Part shown: positions 18,956-59,100 of the stretch, in pieces
How the letters are laid out: each line of letters begins with the position of its first letter
How positions within the stretch are numbered: position 1 is the stretch's first letter
Assembly: GCA_963754305.1 (NCBI GenBank)
Contig: CAVWFR010000034.1
Coordinates: 5,452 to 69,451 of the forward strand
Source of the DNA: an uncultured beta proteobacterium
Lineage (GTDB): Bacteria; Pseudomonadota; Gammaproteobacteria; Burkholderiales; SG8-39
Length of the DNA: 64,000 nt
Direction: 5' to 3'
Notes under the pieces: model-generated
Seen by the model: only the letters and a program-made list of their open reading frames with translations
Databases searched by the model: none
What the model was told of the DNA's origin: nothing
Program-made: the position numbers and the translations under genes

Positions 18956-19339
18956 GTGCTCGCCGACTTCGTCCTCATCGTCCACTTAGCGTTTGTCCTG
19001 TTCGTCGTCGGCGGCTTTGCGCTCGTGCTCGCAGGCGGCGCCCTCGGCTGGCGCTGGATCCGCAACCGCGCCTTCCGGTACGCGCACCTCGCCGCGATCG
19101 CGTTCGTCGCGCTCGAGGCGCTCGCCGGGGTCGCCTGCCCGCTCACGCTCTGGGAGGATGCGCTGCGGCGCACAGGCCCCGTCGCGCCGAGCTTCGTCGG
19201 GCGTTGGGCGCGGCGGCTGCTCTACTACGACTTCCCCGAGTGGGTGTTCACAGTCGCGTACGTCCTCTTCGCGATTGCGGTAGCCGTCACATTCCGGCTC
19301 ATCCCGCCCCGTGAATCGGGCCCCCGTAAGGGGCTATGA
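18956..19339 (+). CDS. DUF2784-like integral membrane protein
   Basis: 127 aa with 3-4 TM helices. The CPLTLWE motif is typical of DUF2784. Confidence 0.65.
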   Translation: MLADFVLIVHLAFVLFVVGGFALVLAGGALGWRWIRNRAFRYAHLAAIAFVALEALAGVACPLTLWEDALRRTGPVAPSFVGRWARRLLYYDFPEWVFTVAYVLFAIAVAVTFRLIPPRESGPRKGL

Positions 19340-19499
19340 TCGCGCGAGACACCGAAAAACACGGGCTGTTGAAACGCGTCGTGAGCATGATCTCGTTGCC
19401 CCTGTCGAACAGCGCTTCCTCTCAACAGCCTCTGACTTGGGGGATCTGAAACGGGGCCTGCCCCCTTTTTCGACCCCTGCCAACGCCCCGGTCAATTGG

Positions 19500-20741
19500 A
19501 TGCGCGTCCTCGTCATCGACGACTCTCCCGAGTTCCGCAGCCGCGTCGCGCAGTATCTCGCCGCGGCGATGCCCGATGCCGAGCTCACGCTGTGGGATCC
19601 CGCGGCGCAGGGAAAACCCGGCGTCGGGTTCGACTGGCGCCGTTACGACGCGATGCTCCTCGACGACTCGCCCGGCCCGGGGCAGGACGGCCTCGCCTGG
19701 CTGGAGGCGTTTCGCGCCGAGGCGCGGGTCCCGCCGACCCTGATGCTGTCCGACACCGGCGGCGAGGACATGGCGGTCAAGGCGATCAAGGCCGGGGCCG
19801 CTGACTACCTCAAGAAGCCCGACCTGACGCCGATCCGGCTGGCGATGGCGATCAAGGAAGCGATGATCGAGGCGGTCGAGATCTCACGCGACGTCGACAC
19901 GTTGCGCATGACCCAGAGCCTCGAGATCGGCGCGATCGGCCAGCCGGCGGCGGCCGACCAGGCCGGGGTCTCCGGCTACCGCGTGCTGCGCAAGATCGGC
20001 GAAGGCGGGATGTCGCGCGTCTACCTCGCCGAGCGCGAATCCGACGGGCTGCAGCTCGTCCTGAAGATGCTCGACACGCGGCTCGCCCGCGATCCCCAGT
20101 CGCAGGCGCGCTTCGTGCGCGAGTACAAGATCATCCAGCGCATCCAGAACGCGCACGTGGTGATGATCTTCGACCACGGCTTCACCGCCGAGAACCCGTG
20201 GCTCGCGATGGAATATTTCCCGGGCGGGGATCTCAGCGAGCGCATCCAGAAGGGCATCAGCTCGATGGGCGCGCTCAAGATCCTGGTGCAGATGGCCGAG
20301 GCGCTCGACGCGGTGCACACCGCGGGCGTCGTCCACCGCGACCTCAAGCCGCAGAACATCATGTTCCGCGCCAACCACCGGCTCGCGATCCTCGACTTCG
20401 GCCTCGCGCGCGAGCTCGACGCAACGACGACGCTGACGCAGAAGGGGATGGTGATGGCCACCCCGCTCTACATGAGCCCCGAGCAGTGCCTCGGCCATCC
20501 GCACGACGAGCGCGGCGATCTCTACTCGACCGGCGTGATCCTGTACGAGATGCTCACCGGAACGCAGCCGTTCGAGGGCGAGAACGCCTCCGCGCTCGCC
20601 TATCAGCACGTCCACGGCGAGGCCCCGCGCCTGCCCCGGCGGTTGTCGGGGTATCAGCCGATCGTCGACCGGCTGCTCGCCAAGCGTCCCGACGAGCGGT
20701 TCCAGTCGGCGCGCGAGCTGTTCAACTTCATCGCGCACTAG
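19500..20741 (+). CDS. response-regulator receiver domain fused to a Hanks-type Ser/Thr protein kinase
   Basis: Starts [12 protein letters not shown]. The receiver has DAMLLDD and a YLKKP lysine. The kinase has [26 protein letters not shown] and SPEQ motifs. Confidence 0.8.
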
Positions 20742-20754
20742 GGCCGCGAGGGTC

Positions 20755-21555
20755 ATGTCCGAGACCGCGTATCTGGACCTGATGAAGCACGTCCTCGACC
20801 GCGGCAGCCGCAAGGCCGACCGCACCGGCACCGGCACGCTGTCGGTGTTCGGCGCTCAGATGCGGTTCGATCTCACCGAGCGCTTCCCGCTGCTCACGAC
20901 CAAGAAGCTGCATTTCAAGTCGATCGTCTACGAGCTGCTCTGGTTCCTGCGCGGCGACACCAACGTCCGCTGGCTGCAGGAGCGTGGCGTGACGATCTGG
21001 GACGAGTGGGCGGATGCAACGGGGGAACTCGGCCCGGTGTACGGCTACCAGTGGCGCAAGTGGCCCGACCGCACGGGGGGCACCATCGACCAGATCGCAG
21101 GCGTGGTCGATTCGATACGCGCCAGACCCGAATCGCGCCGCCATATCGTCACCGCGTGGAACCCCGCGGACGTGGACCGGATGGCGCTCCCGCCGTGTCA
21201 CGCGCTGTTCCAGTTCTACGTCGCGGACGGCCGCCTCTCGTGCCAGCTCTATCAGCGCAGCGCCGACATCTTCCTCGGCGTGCCGTTCAACATCGCATCG
21301 TACGCGCTGCTCACGCTCATGATGGCGCAGGTGACGGGCCTCGCGCCCGGCGAGTTCGTGCTGACGCTCGGCGATGCACACCTCTACCTGAACCACCTCG
21401 ACCAGGCGCGCGAGCAGCTCTCCCGCACACCGCGCCCCTTCCCGCGTATGAAGCTCGACCCGCGCGTCGCCGACATCTTCGGGTTCGCCTACCAAGACTT
21501 CTCGCTCGAAGGCTACGAGCCCCACCCCGCAATCAAAGCCCCGATCGCCGTCTGA
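20755..21555 (+). CDS. thyA: thymidylate synthase
   Basis: 266 aa. The LPPCH active site and the DRTGTGT and QRSAD motifs are present. Confidence 0.97.
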
Positions 21556-21612
21556 CTCGGCGGCACGCCCCGGGTTACCCCCCTTGTTCATACGAGTGTG
21601 CCCGCCCGGACC

Positions 21613-21652
21613 TTCTTTTTCGCGGCGCGCTACGCGCGCCCGAAAAAAGAAG
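21613..21652. repeat. 40-nt near-perfect palindrome (long stem-loop) between convergent genes
   Basis: cttctttttcgcggcgcg ctac gcgcgcccgaaaaaagaag. The T-run lies 5' and the A-run 3' of the GC stem, so this is not a canonical intrinsic terminator in either direction. A second inverted repeat, ggagagctc..gagctctcc, lies at 21682..21721. Confidence 0.5.
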
Positions 21653-21763
21653 GCCCGCGGGGAGGGGAGCGGGCCTGAAGCGGAGAGCTCACTGATGCGA
21701 TCTTGCTCGGACGAGCTCTCCCGGGGAGGACGTGGTGAAGTTGTTGTTGTCGCTGCGCCTGAA

Positions 21764-22159
21764 CTATTCCTTCTCCTGCCGCGACGGCCGGCTCACGACC
21801 GCACCGTCGACGACTCTCACCTTCTCGCCGACCGCAACCGCGGGCGGAGCGGCCTGGGACAGCGTCCGGTACAACCCGTCGTCCATCCGCACGGTGATCC
21901 GGTAGACCACGCGCCTGCCGCTGTCCCGCCCGGCGTCCGCGCCCTCGGGCACGACCACAGTCCGGATCGCTTCCACCGCACCGCAGTTCGCGCAGGACAC
22001 CGCCCCCGCCGGGGCGACCGGCACCCGCGCCGCGATCGGCTCGCTCGTGTCGGCTCGCAACGGCGGCGTGCGACCGCTCATGGCGGAGAGGGCGACGAGG
22101 CCAACCACCGTCGCCGATGCGGCAGCGCCTAGAGCGACGAGTTGCGGCCGGGTGGGCAT
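21764..22159 (-). CDS. hypothetical single-pass membrane protein with CxxC motif (131 aa)
   Basis: The ATG at 22159 is preceded by ggataagg. The 18 codons upstream, up to the GTG at 22213, use AT-ending rare codons. One N-terminal TM helix (QLVALGAAASATVVGLVALSA) is followed by SCANCGAVEAIR and YRITVRMDDG. Confidence 0.6.
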   Translation of the reverse strand: MPTRPQLVALGAAASATVVGLVALSAMSGRTPPLRADTSEPIAARVPVAPAGAVSCANCGAVEAIRTVVVPEGADAGRDSGRRVVYRITVRMDDGLYRTLSQAAPPAVAVGEKVRVVDGAVVSRPSRQEKE

Positions 22160-22252
22160 TGCCTTATCCAGGTCGGTGGCTCCCTGTAACGGGTATTGCG
22201 GTCTGAAGAGCACACGATGATGCGCTGCGTCGAAGACGCTTTAGTGATCCTT

Positions 22253-22268
22253 TGCAACCGCCGTGCCA
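22253..22268 (-). promoter_or_regulatory. sigma54 (-24/-12) promoter
   Basis: The minus strand reads TTGGCACGGCGGTTGCAA. This matches the YTGGCACGR-N3-TTGCW consensus at every specified position. It lies about 95 nt upstream of the ATG at 22159. Confidence 0.75.
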
Positions 22269-22287
22269 ACACAAAAATTACCCGCTC

Positions 22288-22300
22288 AATCAATAGTTTG
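22288..22300. promoter_or_regulatory. IHF-like site (WATCAANNNNTTR)
   Basis: AATCAATAGTTTG sits in the AT-richest part of the intergenic region, between the sigma54 promoter and the upstream palindromes. Confidence 0.35.
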
Positions 22301-22322
22301 TTGGAACGACGAGAGGAAACGC

Positions 22323-22340
22323 TGTCGGTGCTGCCCGACA
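22323..22340. promoter_or_regulatory. GlrR/QseF-type enhancer box 1 (TGTC-N10-GACA)
   Basis: TGTCggtgctgcccGACA, about 55-70 bp upstream of the -24 element. Confidence 0.55.
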
Positions 22341-22380
22341 CGGATGAAGCGAGCCGGTTTGATCGCGCAATAAGGATTGC

Positions 22381-22398
22381 TGTCGCCGCGGGACGACA
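22381..22398. promoter_or_regulatory. GlrR/QseF-type enhancer box 2 (TGTC-N10-GACA)
   Basis: TGTCgccgcgggacGACA, 58 bp (centre to centre) from box 1. Confidence 0.55.
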
Positions 22399-22402
22399 AG
22401 GA

Positions 22403-22672
22403 CTACTTCTTCGGCTGGCAGTAGTCGAAGCCGTCCTGCCATCCAGCGACGTATTGCGCTTCACCCTTGGGACGCAGCGCGTTTTGACCCGTGCGCGCCA
22501 CCGCGCAGCCGTCCCCAAACCCGCGGCGAAACTCGGGCGGGTAGCCGGAGAGATTGATCGAGCGCGTCACAGTGCCCGGGTTCTGTGCCCCGGGCCGCAG
22601 GCTCTCGTCGCTCGCACAACCGGCGACGCCGATGAGCACGATCAAGGCGTATCCGGCGAGGCGGCGGTGCAT
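22403..22672 (-). CDS. small lipoprotein (89 aa)
   Basis: Starts MHRRLAGYALIVLIGVAGC (lipobox). It lies 46 bp downstream of the glrR-like gene on the same strand. Confidence 0.6.
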   Translation of the reverse strand: MHRRLAGYALIVLIGVAGCASDESLRPGAQNPGTVTRSINLSGYPPEFRRGFGDGCAVARTGQNALRPKGEAQYVAGWQDGFDYCQPKK

Positions 22673-22718
22673 CGCTTGCACCGGGCGGTGGTGAACCTGC
22701 GACGCGCGCCTGGGTGCG

Positions 22719-24086
22719 TCAGCGGCCCGCGGTCTGCGCACCGCGCTCGACTTTGAACATCCCCGGCTGGAGCCGGTGGCGCTCGAGCAGCTTGTAGAAC
22801 TCCGTGCGGTTGCGCTGCGCGAGACGCGCCGCGCGCGACACGTTGCCGCGGGTGAGCCGCAGGATCCGAACGAGATAGTCGCGCTCGAAGGCGCGTTTCG
22901 CCTCGTCGAGCGGCGTGAGGCCGGCAGGCTCGCTCTTGAGCGCCGCCGCGACGAGCGCCGCCGGCACGATGGGCGAGGTTGCGAGCGCGACCGCCTGCTC
23001 GACGACATTCGCGAGCTGCCGGACGTTTCCGGGCCACGGCGCACCGATCAGCAGCTCGAGCGCCTCGGGCGCGAACGCCCGCACGTCCTTGCCGTAGCGC
23101 CCGGCGGTCGCCCCCAGAAAGTGGGTAGCGAGCGGCACGATGTCCTCGCGCCGCTCGGCGAGGGCGGGAACCGCGAACGACACCACGTTCAGGCGATAGT
23201 AGAGATCCTCCCGGAACTCGCCGGACGCGACCCGCCCCTCGAGATCGCGATGCGTCGCCGACATGATGCGGACGTCGATCGGCATCGACTGCGTCGCGCC
23301 GACCGGCCGCACCTCGCGCTCCTGGAGCGCGCGCAGGAGCTTGACCTGCAGCGCGATCGGCATGTCGCCGATCTCGTCGAGGAACACGGTCCCACCCTCG
23401 GCGGACTGGAACAGGCCCTTGTGGTCGTAAGCCGCGCCGGTGAAGGCGCCCTTGCGATGGCCGAAGAGCTCGCTCTCGAGCAGCGCCTCCGGGATCGCCG
23501 CGCAGTTCACCGCGACGAACGGCGAGCCGGAGCGCTTGCCGGCCCGATGGATCGCACGGGCGAGCAGCTCCTTGCCCGTGCCGCTCGCGCCGGCGATGAG
23601 CACGCTCGCATCCGACTGCGCCACGAGCCGAGCCCGGCGCAGGAGATCTTCGATCTGCGGGCTCGCCGAGACGATCCCGGCCCGCCAATCCTCGCCTTCG
23701 GCCGGCGCGCGGGCCGAGGAGGACAGCTTCAACGCCTGGGCGACCTGGGCGAGCAAGTCCCGCGCCTCGAACGGCTTCGGCAGAAAGCCGAACACGCCGC
23801 GCTTGGTGGCGTCGACCGCCTCCGGAATGGTGCCGTGCGCGGTGAGGATGATGACCGGCAGCGTCGGCGCGGTGCGGCGGATGGCCTCGAACAGCGCGAG
23901 GCCGTCCATTCCGTCCATCCGCAGGTCCGTCACGACCACGTCGGGTCGCGAGACGGCGATCGCCGCGAGCGCGCGCGCGCCGCTTTCCGCGGTTTGTGCG
24001 GCGTGCCCTGCGGCGCCCAGGCGGAGCGCAAGGAGCTTCAGAATGTCGGGATCGTCGTCGACGACCAGGATCGTGGATTGGGTCAT
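22719..24086 (-). CDS. glrR: sigma54-dependent two-component response regulator, GlrR/QseF-like
   Basis: 455 aa. The receiver reads ILVVDDDPDILKLLALRL..TDLRMDGMDGLALF..PVIILTAHG. It has an AAA+ domain with the GAFTGA loop and a C-terminal HTH. It aligns closely by eye with recalled E. coli GlrR. Confidence 0.88.
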   Translation of the reverse strand: MTQSTILVVDDDPDILKLLALRLGAAGHAAQTAESGARALAAIAVSRPDVVVTDLRMDGMDGLALFEAIRRTAPTLPVIILTAHGTIPEAVDATKRGVFGFLPKPFEARDLLAQVAQALKLSSSARAPAEGEDWRAGIVSASPQIEDLLRRARLVAQSDASVLIAGASGTGKELLARAIHRAGKRSGSPFVAVNCAAIPEALLESELFGHRKGAFTGAAYDHKGLFQSAEGGTVFLDEIGDMPIALQVKLLRALQEREVRPVGATQSMPIDVRIMSATHRDLEGRVASGEFREDLYYRLNVVSFAVPALAERREDIVPLATHFLGATAGRYGKDVRAFAPEALELLIGAPWPGNVRQLANVVEQAVALATSPIVPAALVAAALKSEPAGLTPLDEAKRAFERDYLVRILRLTRGNVSRAARLAQRNRTEFYKLLERHRLQPGMFKVERGAQTAGR

Positions 24087-24790
24087 GGCTTCCTAGGGGG
24101 CGGGGACTGCTGCCCCCGCTCGATGAGTTGCTTGTCGATTGCGCGCAGCTGCTCGACCTGCTCCTTCAGTTGGTCGGCGCGCTTCTGGGTCTTCAGCCGC
24201 TCGGCGAGCTGCGCATGCACCAGGCTCGCGAGCTGGCGGAGCGCGCCGCTGCCGGAAGCGACCGGCTCGAGGAGCTGGATCGCGCGCGCGTCGTCCTGGA
24301 ACGCGGTGCCCGGCAACGCATACAGCAGTGCTAGCCGCACTCGGCTCGCTCCCGACCGTTCGCGATTGAAGCTCTGCGTCGCGGCCGCGAGCTCGCGCTT
24401 CTGCTCGTCCGGACCGAGGCCTGCGACGCGCTGAGTGTAACCCAGGAGGTCGATTACTTGACGCGCCTCTTCCGCTTCCGCCGACGGCTGCACTAGAGGC
24501 GGCTGCACTGCGGGCGCGGGCGGCTCCACCACCGCGGGCGCGGGCGGCTCCACCACCGGCTGGGGCGGCTCCACCACCGCGGGCGCGCGCGGCTCCACCA
24601 CCGGCGCGGGCGGCTGCATCGGGACGCAGCCGGCGAGCGCGAGCGCGACGAGCGTTGACGCGAGCGAACGCGCCAGGAAGCGAATCGACGCCGTGGCGCG
24701 GCGATTCTCCTCAGACCGGGAAGCACGCGAGACCCCGTCCCCTGGTGTCGTGGAAACTCGGTAGTACACCGCGTGCGGCCCGCGCTTCAC
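24083..24790 (-). CDS. QseG/YfhG-like lipoprotein (start uncertain)
   Basis: It sits between the kinase and regulator genes, as qseG does. It has a lipobox (LVALALAGC), a proline-rich VVEPPAPA repeat and a coiled-coil-like C-terminus, LKEQVEQLRAIDKQLIERG. The GTG at 24790 overlaps the kinase stop (GTGA), and its own stop overlaps the glrR ATG (ATGA). An alternative ATG at about 24617 lies after the lipobox. Confidence 0.55.
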   Translation of the reverse strand: MKRGPHAVYYRVSTTPGDGVSRASRSEENRRATASIRFLARSLASTLVALALAGCVPMQPPAPVVEPRAPAVVEPPQPVVEPPAPAVVEPPAPAVQPPLVQPSAEAEEARQVIDLLGYTQRVAGLGPDEQKRELAAATQSFNRERSGASRVRLALLYALPGTAFQDDARAIQLLEPVASGSGALRQLASLVHAQLAERLKTQKRADQLKEQVEQLRAIDKQLIERGQQSPPPRKP

Positions 24791-26238
24791 GCCACCTCCC
24801 GCCGCGAAGCGACCTGGGGCAGCGTCAGCCGGAACCGGCCGCCGGGTCCCTCGAGCGCCTCGATCCTGCCCCCGTGCGCGACCGCGAACTCGCGCGCGAT
24901 CGCGAGCCCGAGTCCGCTGCCCTTGACGCGCGCACCGGATGGCCGCTCGCCGTGAAAGAACCAGTCGAACACCTTCTCGCGATCGGCGTCCGGCACGCCG
25001 GGACCCTCGTCGGCGATCTCCAGGCACACGTCGCGCTCGCCCGGCACGACGGTGACGCGGACGGTGCCGCCCTCGGGCGAATACTTCACCGCGTTCGACA
25101 CCAGGTTGTCGGCGACCACCCGCAGCTTCTCCGCGTCGCCAAGCAGCGGGGAGGGTTTCGCATCGAGCGCGAATGCGACCGCGCGGCCGGCCGCGTTGAG
25201 CTTGTGCCCGTCGATCGCGGCATTGGCGACCGCGGCGAGATCGACCTTCGCGAGCTTCAGCTGCTCCACGCCTGCTACCGCGCTCTGGTAGTGCAAGAGG
25301 TCCTCGATCAGGCGCTGGAGCTGCACGCTGTTCGACTGCAGGATTGCGACGATTTCGCGCTGCTGCGGCGTCACCGGCCCGCAAGCGCCGTCGGCGAGGA
25401 GCTCCGAGCCCTCGCGGAGCGCGGTGAGCGGCGTCTTCAGCTCGTGCGAGACGTGCCGCAGAAACCGCGCCTTCTGCTCCTCGAGCGCCCCCAGCCGCAG
25501 GCGGAGCCAGTCGAGACGCTCGCCGAGAAACTCGAGATCGGCCGGCCCCTGCACGTCCACCGCCGCGCCGAACTCGGCGGCGCCGAGCCGGCGGATCGCG
25601 CGGTCGAGCTGGCGGATCGGCCGCGCGATGAGGAACGCGAACAGCACCGCGATCGCGAGCCCGAGCGGGAACGCGGCGGCGAGCTGGACGAAGAGCGCAG
25701 ACTGCGTCGCCGATGCGATCTCGCGCATGCGCTCGACCTCGCGGTCGATCAGCAGGCTCGACTCGTTCAGCACGCTCCGCGCGAGCCCAGAAAGCTCGAC
25801 GTAACCTTCGATCAGCTTGCGCCGCTCGGGCGCCGGCGTGGGCTCGACGACCAGCTCGTCGTAGAGCGCCTGCTCCTTGTCGATCGTGCGGTTCAGCTCC
25901 GAGAGCTGCAGCTCGTCGAGCGGCAGCAGCGACAGCTCGCTCGTGGTGCGCTTGAAGTTGGCGCGGATCTTGGAATAGTCTTCGAGGAGCCCCGGATCGT
26001 CGAGGATCACGTACTGGCGCACGACTCTTTCCATCGACTGGGCCTGCTCCATCAGGAGCCGCGAGCCGCGCGCCGCCTGCACCGCCTGGTCTACCGCGCT
26101 CTCGCTCATGCTCGCGAGCCGCTGCATCGAGAGCGCGGCGTTCACCAGCGCGACGACGAGCGGCGCCGCGACGACGACGAAGCCGATCAGAAGCAGCTTC
26201 AGGAACGACTTCGGGTAGTAGAAATTTGCGAGCTTCAA
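24787..26238 (-). CDS. glrK: sensor histidine kinase, GlrK/QseE-like
   Basis: 483 aa with two TM segments. The periplasmic block ERVVRQYVILDDPGLLEDY is present. H-box FLRHVSHELKTPLTALREGSELLADG..GPVTPQQREIV. The HATPase domain has GSGLGLAIA. Confidence 0.88.
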   Translation of the reverse strand: MKLANFYYPKSFLKLLLIGFVVVAAPLVVALVNAALSMQRLASMSESAVDQAVQAARGSRLLMEQAQSMERVVRQYVILDDPGLLEDYSKIRANFKRTTSELSLLPLDELQLSELNRTIDKEQALYDELVVEPTPAPERRKLIEGYVELSGLARSVLNESSLLIDREVERMREIASATQSALFVQLAAAFPLGLAIAVLFAFLIARPIRQLDRAIRRLGAAEFGAAVDVQGPADLEFLGERLDWLRLRLGALEEQKARFLRHVSHELKTPLTALREGSELLADGACGPVTPQQREIVAILQSNSVQLQRLIEDLLHYQSAVAGVEQLKLAKVDLAAVANAAIDGHKLNAAGRAVAFALDAKPSPLLGDAEKLRVVADNLVSNAVKYSPEGGTVRVTVVPGERDVCLEIADEGPGVPDADREKVFDWFFHGERPSGARVKGSGLGLAIAREFAVAHGGRIEALEGPGGRFRLTLPQVASRREVA

Positions 26239-48785: not shown

Positions 48786-49229
48786 ATGGCCCTGGAGCTC
48801 CCGCTGCCGTTCATCGGCTGGTTCTTCACAATGGGGAGCGTACTCGCGCTCGCGGTCGGCGCGATGCTGATCATCGCGCTGCACCGAGGCGACGAGCGCT
48901 CGCGCGGCGTCCTGGCACGGACGGCGTGGAACGACATGGCGCTCTTCGGGATCTGGTTCCTCGGCCTCGCCGGCGGCATCGGCGTGCTGCAGCTCCGGCC
49001 GTGGGGGCGGCATCTGCTCGAGTTCTTCTGCTGGACGCTGATGGCGCTCGTGTTGCTGTCCGCGGCGACACGGCTCCAGGCGTACAAGCGGCTGCCGGCG
49101 GAGGAGCGCGTGAGCTGGATCGGCGCGATCTCGGGCGTCGCGCTGGTGCTGATCCCGGTGCTGGCGATCTGCGGCGCGACCATCGTCACCTTGCGGAGCG
49201 AAGGGACGCGTGCGGCGTTTGGCGGCTAG
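48786..49229 (+). CDS. hypothetical 4-TM membrane protein, last gene of the apparent operon
   Basis: Starts MALELPLPFIGWFFTMGSVLALAVGAMLIIAL. 147 aa with four hydrophobic helices. It begins 14 bp after the module 2 small subunit. No family was recognised. Confidence 0.55.
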   Translation: MALELPLPFIGWFFTMGSVLALAVGAMLIIALHRGDERSRGVLARTAWNDMALFGIWFLGLAGGIGVLQLRPWGRHLLEFFCWTLMALVLLSAATRLQAYKRLPAEERVSWIGAISGVALVLIPVLAICGATIVTLRSEGTRAAFGG

Positions 49230-56185: not shown

Positions 56186-59100
56186 CTACCGCGATGGCGC
56201 GTCGCAGATCGGCGCGGTCAGCGGCCGAACGCGTCCGGCGCGATCAAGCGCGCGCTGTGCCGCCGCCAGCGGCCCCTCAGTCTCGGGCGCGGCGAGCCGG
56301 CACGCGTCCACGTTAGTGGTCGCGCCGGGCGTGGTCTCGCCAAGCGCACCGAGCGCGCTCCGCGCCGTCGCGCTGACGAGCGCCTGATCGGAGGACGGCG
56401 CGCCGCCTCCCACCACGAGCAGCCCGTCGACGAACGTGATCGCATAGTTCGTCGAGCTCACGCCGCCCGGCGCGATGGCGTAGATCCCCGGCGGCGAGGT
56501 CGTCGTCGCCGGCGTCGCGAACACCAGAGCGCCGCTCAGATCGTTCACGGTTTGGCCGAGCTTGAAGCCCGTCGCGGTCGCAGTGAACGGCGGATTCGGA
56601 GCACCGAAGGCGCGCGCCTTGTCGTCGGCGACGAGCCCGAGCGGGGCCGGCGTGATCACGAGCTGGCCGTTCACGGAGCTGATGATGTAGTTCGGATTGG
56701 CGCCGCTCGCCACGTTGATGACGAAGTTGCCGGTGTTCGATGCGCTCGTCGCCGGCGTGGTCAGCGCGACCCCGGGGATCGCCGCCGGCGAGTCGCCGTT
56801 CGCGAGCCCGGTGAACGTCGCGGTCAGGGCAGGGTTCGGATCGCCGTAGGACCGTGTCTTGTTGTCCGCGGCGATGGACAGCGCGGCGGGCGTGATCGCA
56901 AGGTTGGCGCCGGTATAGGCGATCGTGTAGTTCGCGTTGGGCGCGAGCGTGCCCTGGGCGATCGCGTACGGACTGCCCGGCACGGTTTCGCCGGGCGCGC
57001 GCGCGAGCGCGCCCGAGAGCACCGTGGCCGGCGTGTCGGCGAACTGAAAGCCGGTCGCGTTGTATGTCAGCGTCGGGTCGGGCGTGCCGTAGACCTTGGT
57101 CTGCGCGTTGGCGATCACGCTGAGGGCCGCCGGCGTGATGGCGAAGTTCGCCGGCACGAAAGTGATCGTGTAGTTCGCCGGGGCGGTCGTCGTCAGGGTG
57201 CCCTGGTTGAGCGCATACGCGGCGACGTTCTCGCCCGGGGCGCGGCCGAGCGCGCCGACGAGCATGTCACCGGCGACGATCGCCGGGCCGGTGGTGCCGG
57301 TGCCGCCGGCAACTGCGTAGCCGAACACCGGGTCGACGCTGCCGTACACCTTGTTCTGACCGGGCGTCGCGGCGATCGTGACCGGGCGTACAGTGATTCC
57401 GAAGTTGTCTGGGACGAAGGTCAGGGCGTAGTTTGGTCCCGCCGTCAGGGTCCCTTGCTGGATCGGGTACGCGCCCACGTTCTCCCCGGCCACGCGCGTC
57501 GTCGCGCCCGAGAAGCCGTCGGTGCCAACCAACGACCCGCTAGTGAGGGCGTAGGTGTAGGCGGCCGGGTTCGGCTCGCCGTAGATCTTCGTCTGATTCG
57601 GATCCGCGGTGACCTGGATCGCGCGCTGGCCGATCGTGAGCGTGCCCGGGTTGATCGCGGTGATGTTGTAGTTGCCGTTGACGCCGACGACCACGCCGGC
57701 GACGTTGTAGGCATTCGCGCCGGTCGAGTACGTTCCCACCGCGGTGTTGGCCACCGCACCGCTCGTGACGCTGAAGCCGAAGAGCGTCTGGGCGTTCTCG
57801 GCGTTCGCCATGCCGCCCCCACCGACGGTGTAGAGCGGCGCCGGCACCGGGTTGGCGTCGCCGTAGGCCCGCGCAGCGCTCCCGGCGGTGAGCGTGATCA
57901 GGCGCGGCGAGATCGTCAGCGCCGTCGCGTTGCCGGGCGCCTGCACGAACGCGTAGTTCGCGGCAGCGAGTCCGCCGCCGTCGATCGCATACGCCCCGAC
58001 CGGCGTCGTGCCGATCGCGGCCGTCGTGAACGCGAGCGCGCCCGTCGTCGCCGTCCCGATCGTCTCGCCGTTCTTGAAGCCGGTCACGGCACCGGACAGC
58101 ACCGGGTTCGGATCGCCGTACTCGCGCGCGGCGGCGTTGGCCACGTAGGTCAGCGTCGCCGGGGTGATGGCGAGCGCGCCCTGGACCGGCGTCACCAGGT
58201 AGTTCGCGTTGGTCGCGCCCGTGACGCTGTAGGCATTCGGCCCGGCCGCGTAGTTGCCGACCGGCGTGGTGCCGATTGCGCCGCTCGCGGCGCCCAGCGA
58301 CGGAAACGCCGCGGCGAGCGTCTCGTGGGGGGCGACGCCGGTTCCCGGGGCGGTCGGGTTCGCCGTTACGGCAACTGCCGGGTTCGGATCGCCGTACTCG
58401 CGCGCCGCACTGCCGGCGGTCAGCGTGATCGGTCGCTGCGTGACGATCAGGGCGGTGCCGTTGGTCCCGGCCTGGACGAAAGCGTAGTTGCCGTTGTTGG
58501 CGGTGAGGCCGCTGCCGTTGATCGCGTACGTGCCGACGTTCGAGGCGGGAACCGCGGGGGTCGCAAAGGCCAGGGCACCGGTCGTCGCGGTCGGGATCGA
58601 TTCGCCGTTCTTGAAGCCGGTGACGGTGCCGGTGAGCGCGGGGTTCGGATCGCCATAGATCCGCGACTGCGGGTCTGCAAGATAGGTGAGCGTCGACGCG
58701 TTGATCGTGAGCGCGGCGGCGTTGGCCGGGGCCTGCGCGAACGCGTAGCCGATATCGGAGGTAAGGCCCGAGCCGTTGATCGCGTAGCTGCCGACGTTCG
58801 AGGTGGCGATTGCCGGGGAAGTGAACGCGAGCGTGCCGGTGTACGCGTCGGCCGCCGTATCGCCGTTTACGAGGCCGTTCACCGTCCCCGTGAACGCCGG
58901 GTTCGCATCGCCATAGAGGCGGCTAGCCGGGTCGGCGGCGTAGGTCAGCGTCGGCTGGTAGCTGTAGATGCGATGGTTGCCGGTCGGCGGGATCGTCGCC
59001 CCGCAGGGCCCACCGAAGTTGCAGTTGTACAGGTTCGGCTTCGGGTTGCCGGGCACCGGGATCGCACCCGTGTCGTTGGCCGGATTCTGCGAGTAGACGA

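Follow-up and report, generated by a model that had tools for sequence, protein, structure and literature searches.

A predicted GlrR- and sigma54-dependent promoter before a SlyB-related envelope protein gene in an uncultured Burkholderiales bacterium

Genes and features of the locus

The DNA stretch under study, called the window below, covers 64,000 nucleotides (nt) of contig CAVWFR010000034.1 (NCBI GenBank assembly GCA_963754305.1, positions 5,452 to 69,451 of the forward strand) from an uncultured soil beta proteobacterium of the order Burkholderiales. Its minus strand carries an operon for a kinase, a lipoprotein, and a sigma54 activator resembling GlrK/QseE, QseG, and GlrR/QseF of Escherichia coli, and beyond it a predicted sigma54 promoter with two GlrR-type boxes, which faces a gene for a membrane protein of 131 amino acids (aa), the target gene of this study. 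To our knowledge, the QseE/QseF (GlrK/GlrR) system has been studied almost solely in Enterobacteriaceae, with glmY and rpoE as its outputs there. KEGG-based surveys place QseE/QseF also in beta- and deltaproteobacteria (PMC8895600), and our literature search for GlrR/QseF targets in betaproteobacteria found nothing relevant. A sequence-only reading of the window had proposed that the promoter defines an output of GlrR other than GlmY and GlmZ, which are two small RNAs (sRNAs), and the present computational analysis followed up that proposal.

The features are listed here in the direction of transcription, with promoter positions counted from the predicted start near 22242; IHF is integration host factor.

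24787..26238, minus strand: GlrK/QseE-like sensor histidine kinase gene
24083..24790, or with a start at 24733, minus strand: gene for a lipoprotein in the QseG position, between the kinase and regulator genes
22719..24086, minus strand: gene for a GlrR/QseF-like sigma54 activator with receiver, AAA+ (with GAFTGA), and helix-turn-helix domains (Pfam, NCBIfam)
22403..22672, minus strand: gene for an 89-aa lipoprotein with lipobox VAGC and two further Cys, between glrR and the promoter
22381..22398, palindrome without strand: distal GlrR-type box, TGTCGCCGCGGGACGACA in plus-strand reading, centre at -147
22323..22340, palindrome without strand: proximal GlrR-type box, TGTCGGTGCTGCCCGACA in plus-strand reading, centre at -89
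22288..22300, plus strand: IHF-consensus site AATCAATAGTTTG, at -58..-46
22253..22268, minus strand: predicted sigma54 promoter with -24/-12 elements, TGGCACGGCGGTTGCA, from direct reading and conservation
22160..22242, minus strand: predicted 5′ leader of about 83 nt (about 71 nt if translation starts at CTG 22171)
21764..22159, minus strand: target gene, 131 aa, with a membrane anchor at the N-terminus and then a CxxC beta-domain; SlyB-related, lacking the glycine-zipper hairpin
21643..21676, minus strand: terminator-like hairpin 3′ of the target gene (by folding), with an 8-bp G+C-rich stem and a 10-nt loop, followed by the U-tract UUCUUUUUU

Structure of the promoter region

The site read on the minus strand from 22268 to 22254 is the sole perfect TGGCAC-N5-TTGC of the 64 kb, and the only other sigma54 hit of the window (at 49042) has one mismatch. 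It conforms to the extended form YTGGCACG-N4-TTGCW and holds GG at -24 and GC at -12 with the fixed spacing; setting these two dinucleotides at their positions gives the predicted start near 22242. The pattern WATCAANNNNTTR is matched once in the window, at 22288..22300, versus 0.09 matches expected from shuffles. Both boxes are perfect copies of TGTC-N10-GACA, a motif found three times in the window versus 0.56 times expected, and the chance of two boxes in a given 200-bp stretch, calculated from the measured background rate, is about 1.5e-6. The box centres fall within 80-150 bp upstream of the start, with the predicted IHF bend site between them and the promoter, as in an enhancer-type layout. 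All the motifs of the sequence-only reading (sigma54 site, IHF site, and two palindromes) were thus recovered where it had placed them, and its argument that two boxes beside a sigma54 promoter are very unlikely to arise by chance holds both by this figure and by the conservation described below.

The third TGTC-N10-GACA copy, at 56863..56880, was tried as a second regulon site and rejected: it lies within an open reading frame (ORF) of more than 870 aa, has no sigma54 promoter near it, and is probably a chance match.

A simple promoter and terminator scan of 21500..22800 found no sigma70-like promoter and no terminator in this region. The hairpin at 21643..21676 was missed by it because the scan permits loops of up to 8 nt and the loop here has 10 nt.

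Conservation of the promoter cassette

A metagenome scan by protein alignment of the target family returned 80 loci, and conservation was evaluated in a sample of 64 non-redundant loci with upstream stretches of 320 bp or more. In 54 of them the target homologue is preceded by a perfect coding-strand sigma54 promoter, and in 48 by such a promoter together with a perfect box. At least one perfect box is present in 52 of the 64 loci, so that the conservation which the sequence-only reading had proposed to look for, upstream of orthologues of the 21764..22159 gene, is indeed there. The remaining 227 kb of the same loci gave, as background, 5 promoter matches and 4 boxes. Promoter and boxes were found before orthologues as well as paralogues of the 131-aa gene, across dozens of loci. 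The distance from distal box to promoter is 146-150 bp in most loci and 129-130 bp in the clade of the window.

The linkage to the regulator is also conserved: of the 40 loci whose upstream sequence exceeds 2 kb, 31 have a GlrR homologue directly upstream. Around four different target homologues the gene order is folA, kinase, lipoprotein, GlrR, small lipoprotein, target ... thyA, and one of these four, 184 aa long, includes a glycine zipper. In all four contigs the distal box, the proximal box, and TGGCACG-N4-TTGC stand upstream of the target gene. As a side observation, the glrKR-target module is flanked by folA and thyA.

In five loci (L121, L135, L152, L145, and L115) the approximately 1.6 to 2.5 kb of available sequence upstream of the target homologue contain no activator gene. 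They retain the boxes and the sigma54 promoter, with at most one mismatch, before a SlyB-like gene, and the cassette therefore travels with the target gene. Their arrangement suggests that these copies are unlinked regulon members.

How the individual positions behave was seen in a footprint alignment of 11 close relatives, whose columns are on average 59% identical. Invariance is essentially confined to the two boxes, the promoter, and the TGATT core within the IHF site. Unchanged in all 11 are TGGCACG-N4-TTGC, the TGATT core, and TGTCGT...CGACA of the distal box. The proximal box in relatives keeps its half-sites around a variable spacer, with the family consensus (C/T)GTCG-N8-CGACA. The pooled consensus of the boxes among relatives is TGTCG(C/T)C-N4-GGCGACA, which agrees with the experimentally proven E. 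coli glmY site TGTCGCTTTCTGGCGACA (PMC3045617), and the family consensus of the distal box agrees with the E. coli glmY site ABS2. Since the half-sites are fixed in this alignment, the spacers vary, and there are no compensatory changes, the boxes show the pattern of a protein-binding site and not that of an RNA stem.

The regulator operon

Along its whole length the activator shares 58% identity with E. coli GlrR; its GAFTGA motif is intact, and the recognition helix, RNRTEFYKLL, is the same in both. Its top NCBIfam model is GlrR with 608 bits, a score under the curated cut-off of 763, followed by NtrC with 420 bits. The sequence-only reading had likewise noted a close alignment with GlrR. 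The closest genome match to the window is a Burkholderiales metagenome-assembled genome (MAG), L001, whose GlrR is 84% identical. No other sigma54 activator gene is present in the 64-kb window.

The kinase has HisKA and HATPase_c domains and shares 35% identity with E. coli GlrK across 429 residues. The order of kinase, lipoprotein, and regulator matches qseE-qseG-qseF, the start and stop codons of adjacent genes overlap, and the same glrK-lipoprotein-glrR layout was found in nearly all GlrR loci examined in beta-, gamma-, and deltaproteobacteria. The start of the lipoprotein gene is uncertain; the candidates are 24733 and GTG 24790, the latter in overlap with the stop codon of glrK, and the counterpart in L170 was called as 235 aa. 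The label qseG given to this gene by the sequence-only reading fits its position, but the BLASTP comparison with E. coli QseG was not significant (E = 0.083). Profile-profile comparison (hhalign, signal peptides removed) with the gammaproteobacterial QseG group gave a probability of 88% with E = 2.8e-6 over 106 columns. By these comparisons, the protein is related to E. coli QseG only remotely, at the profile level. The claim that the promoter lies immediately downstream of the operon holds in so far as it follows glrR, but the 89-aa lipoprotein gene stands between them.

The target gene and its product

The 131-aa protein has no match in Pfam or NCBIfam. Members of its family share a hydrophobic helix at the N-terminus and an invariant CxxCG; some also have a PF05433 glycine-zipper insert, which is missing from the window protein and present in relatives (alignment A1). 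The beta-domain motif common to the homologues is YR(I/V)TVRMDDGSYRT...PP..VGE.VR..DG. In the AlphaFold2 model there is a helix at residues 9-26 and a five-strand beta-domain at residues 56-125, where the predicted local distance difference test (pLDDT) exceeds 90. The top PDB fold match of this model is E. coli SlyB (7ojf_A), a weak match with E = 0.025 and a TM-score of 0.40. The zipper-bearing homologue P0070, which carries PF05433, matches SlyB by sequence with E = 3.4e-8, and this match spans the beta-strand, the zipper, and the R-x-DDG motif. The output of the cassette is apparently a SlyB-family envelope protein, zipperless here and anchored by a membrane helix.

Translation may start upstream of ATG 22159. 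An in-frame CTG at 22171 (region 22169..22184, minus strand) lies 8 nt past a conserved GGAG at 22183..22180 and aligns with the first Met of the homologues (MxxxM...); because of this alignment and spacing it may be the true start.

Interpretation of the cassette and its alternatives

We consider it likely, from the comparison of these loci, that the cassette is a working enhancer-dependent sigma54 promoter which makes the small envelope protein gene the local output of the GlrK/QseG-like/GlrR system. The compared loci directly show which motifs are present, how they are arranged and conserved, and that they are linked to glrR. GlrR binding, dependence on RpoN, the signal, and the role of the protein are what we infer, and they enter the following scheme conditionally. 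The kinase and its lipoprotein partner would sense an envelope signal and phosphorylate GlrR, as is proposed by analogy with E. coli QseE/G/F. Phosphorylated GlrR would bind the two TGTCG-N8-CGACA palindromes at -147 and -89, IHF would bend the DNA at about -52, and the GAFTGA loop of the AAA+ domain of GlrR would remodel the sigma54-RNA polymerase at TGGCACG-N4-TTGCA. Transcription from near 22242 would yield a single-gene mRNA with a leader of about 70-83 nt, 131 codons, and the terminator at 21676..21643. The product would be held in the inner membrane by one N-terminal helix, with its SlyB-like beta-domain and invariant CxxC facing the periplasm.

Several observations weigh against this interpretation. 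The organisms involved are all uncultured and known solely from metagenomes, and the prediction is a sequence-based one. A perfect sigma54 match is lacking in 10 of the 64 loci, the proximal box of relatives is often one mismatch off (CGTC for TGTC), and the IHF core is well kept only in the clade of the window, with TGATW present in 25 of 65 loci. The 608 bits of the GlrR model lie below the NCBI equivalog cut-off of 763. The window version of the target protein is without the glycine-zipper hairpin that defines PF05433. The rpoN and ihfA/B genes lie outside the window, and their presence in the genome is therefore assumed. Finally, read-through could add to the expression of the target gene, because there is no terminator between the upstream operon and the promoter.

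The score below the cut-off also speaks for an alternative that we regard as improbable: the promoter would be real but activated by another enhancer-binding protein, and the palindromes would serve another factor or form an RNA hairpin at the end of the operon. Similar palindromes are recognised by several activators of the NtrC family, and the distal one begins only 5 bp past the stop codon of the 89-aa lipoprotein gene. The recognition helix, however, is the same as that of E. coli GlrR, the extended box consensus agrees with the proven E. coli sites, and the window has no second activator gene. Boxes accompany GlrR orthologues in both beta- and gammaproteobacteria. A hairpin is also disfavoured by the fixed half-sites with varying spacers and by stems of only 5 bp with no U-tract.

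Even less probable is a promoter whose main product is regulatory RNA, be it a leader-derived sRNA or an RNA that functions like GlmY, with the 131-aa ORF being secondary. GlrR does drive sRNAs in Enterobacteriaceae (PMC3045617), the leader of about 83 nt is fairly long and holds small hairpins, and in one Burkholderiales MAG (L005) the same cassette is followed by a structured RNA of about 132 nt and a terminator, with no ORF. The fold of the leader in the window, however, is ordinary (-25.4 kcal/mol, z = -1.2), and the leader was rejected as a structured RNA on this z-score. Nothing terminates ahead of the coding sequence, the distance from promoter to start codon varies from about 45 to 110 nt between loci, and 22 nt of the leader are deleted in a relative whose protein is 84% identical; for these reasons a leader-derived RNA is not supported. 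What is conserved downstream of the promoter over dozens of loci is the protein. Rfam at gathering thresholds found neither GlmY (RF00128) nor GlmZ (RF00083) in the window, nor any other family. At E ≤ 1 on L002, L005-L011, and L016 it found no GlmY or GlmZ outside Enterobacterales. Rfam did detect GlmY (RF00128, 128-146 bits) directly after the same boxes in the positive controls, which were E. coli, Xenorhabdus, and Arsenophonus. This agrees with the statement of the sequence-only reading that the two sRNAs are enterobacterial. Of the two outputs which it had offered, the membrane protein gene is favoured by the conservation of the protein and the leader-derived RNA is not, and its interpretation as a whole is supported by the comparative evidence.

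That short motifs came together by chance in intergenic DNA of a window with 69% G+C, leaving the promoter functionless, is extremely improbable, and this explanation is effectively refuted by the conservation data, since the shuffle expectations for box and IHF pattern, the 48 of 64 loci set against the background of the other 227 kb, and the footprint of the 11 relatives all speak against it and, as far as alignments can tell, rule out a chance origin.

Comparison with known systems

In E. coli, Salmonella, and Yersinia the sigma54 promoters of glmY (and glmZ) are activated by GlrR/QseF together with IHF, and for E. coli glmY the binding of GlrR, the dependence on sigma54, and the requirement for IHF were shown experimentally (PMC3045617; PMC6075780). 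The E. coli glmY region has boxes centred at -221, -188, and -125, an IHF-like site at -58..-46, and the promoter TGGCACAGTTACTGC. The window shares with it the box TGTC-N10-GACA (extended TGTCGC-N6-GCGACA), a box spacing of about 60 bp, canonical -24/-12 elements, and an IHF-like site at the identical position. In both cases the promoter adjoins a kinase-lipoprotein-regulator operon with a regulator of the same family. On the other hand, the window has two boxes and E. coli has three, the cassette follows glrR, whereas that of E. coli precedes glrK, the scan of the promoter region gave no overlapping sigma70 promoter, and the predicted product is the mRNA of a membrane protein instead of an sRNA.

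A second point of comparison is E. coli rpoE, which, as cited in PMC6075780, has a QseF-dependent sigma54 promoter. In that account a protein-coding gene with a role in envelope stress is the target, as is predicted for the window, but there it is a sigma factor gene elsewhere on the chromosome, whereas here it is the adjacent gene of a small protein predicted to face the periplasm.

SlyB is a glycine-zipper outer-membrane lipoprotein of the PhoPQ regulon and an outer-membrane stress protein (bioRxiv 10.64898/2026.06.08.730324; PDB 7ojf). The target family appears homologous to it, and induction by an envelope-sensing two-component system, predicted here, would be common to both. In contrast to SlyB, the window protein has a membrane helix and not a lipobox at its N-terminus, possesses the invariant CxxC, has lost the glycine-zipper hairpin, and would be controlled by GlrR and sigma54 instead of PhoP and sigma70. 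The QseE/QseF system of E. coli responds to envelope-derived signals such as lipopolysaccharide defects (PMC6075780), and an output from the family of an outer-membrane stress protein fits this known biology. The locus thus presents a new and well-conserved predicted output for a known type of switch, a SlyB-related envelope protein in Burkholderiales. With such an output the system would be tied to envelope protection independently of glucosamine-6-phosphate homeostasis. Because the activator shares its recognition helix with E. coli GlrR, E. coli itself could probably serve as a direct test host for the promoter.

A neighbouring target is also known from the sigma54 two-component system ZraSR, whose adjacent target gene zraP encodes a small periplasmic protein feeding back on the kinase. 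The likeness consists in a sigma54-dependent response regulator next to a gene for a small extracytoplasmic protein, while the regulator and target families are unrelated. It is speculation that the zipperless variant might likewise feed back on the kinase in the periplasm.

The cassette and its cargo in other lineages

The cassette of GlrR boxes and sigma54 promoter was also found beside glrKR in other lineages, where the cargo, as assigned with Pfam, differs.

L004, Herbaspirillum: BON-domain protein (OsmY-like)
L003, Sulfuriferula: EF-hand and EF-hand+BON proteins
L008, gammaproteobacterial MAG: EF-hand lipoprotein upstream of glrK
L012, Rhizobacter: opgG-opgH
L010 and L011, Propionivibrio and gammaproteobacterial MAG: bactofilin and FeeM-like gene, divergently transcribed
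L005, Burkholderiales MAG: structured, terminated RNA of about 132 nt, no ORF
L002, region next to glrKR: 57-aa ORF

This distribution suggests a local-output module with swappable, mostly envelope-related cargo. A joint reading of all loci can be put forward only tentatively. The cassette would stay by glrKR across Proteobacteria while the cargo is swapped in each lineage, among SlyB-like and BON-domain proteins, EF-hand proteins of the periplasm, opgGH, bactofilin, and sRNAs unrelated to GlmY. The ancestral task of QseE/G/F could then be the sensing of stress, envelope or osmotic, with a local effector as its output. In that case glmY would be the cargo of one lineage, and the clade of the window would have a dedicated controller of a SlyB-type membrane-stress protein.

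Some arrangements deserve description in their own right. In L010 (1617-1774) and L011 (1725-1882) the boxes lie upstream of glrK and the sigma54 promoter TGGCACGGATATCGC faces away from it, toward the bactofilin gene and then the gene of a FeeM-like N-acyl amino acid synthase. L005 (JANMNT010000125, 5370-5682) carries two perfect GlrR boxes together with TGGCACGCCAATTGC on the downstream side of glrR. Its RNA is strongly structured, with a minimum free energy of -56 kcal/mol, and closes with an intrinsic terminator. Rfam gave no match for it, and a blastn comparison with all the loci collected gave no relatives. We regard it as a candidate GlrR-dependent sRNA in a betaproteobacterium. In Kushneria sp. 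(L009, 1160-1739) three GlrR-type boxes and a near-consensus sigma54 promoter occupy the glmY position upstream of glrK. The approximately 340 nt before the terminator hold no convincing ORF, Rfam detects no GlmY in them, and the transcript may be an sRNA unrelated to GlmY in Halomonadaceae.

Neighbouring genes

The 89-aa lipoprotein matches no Pfam or NCBIfam family. At this position a small lipoprotein of 87-108 aa is kept in the clade of the window only (L001, L081-L086, L089, and others), and it may belong to the signalling operon as a fourth component. Some relatives show an overlap between its start and the stop codon of glrR.

On the plus strand, at 19311..20741, lies a gene whose product joins a response-regulator receiver to a Ser/Thr protein kinase domain. 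In all related contigs this gene adjoins those for thyA, DUF2784, and rhodanese.

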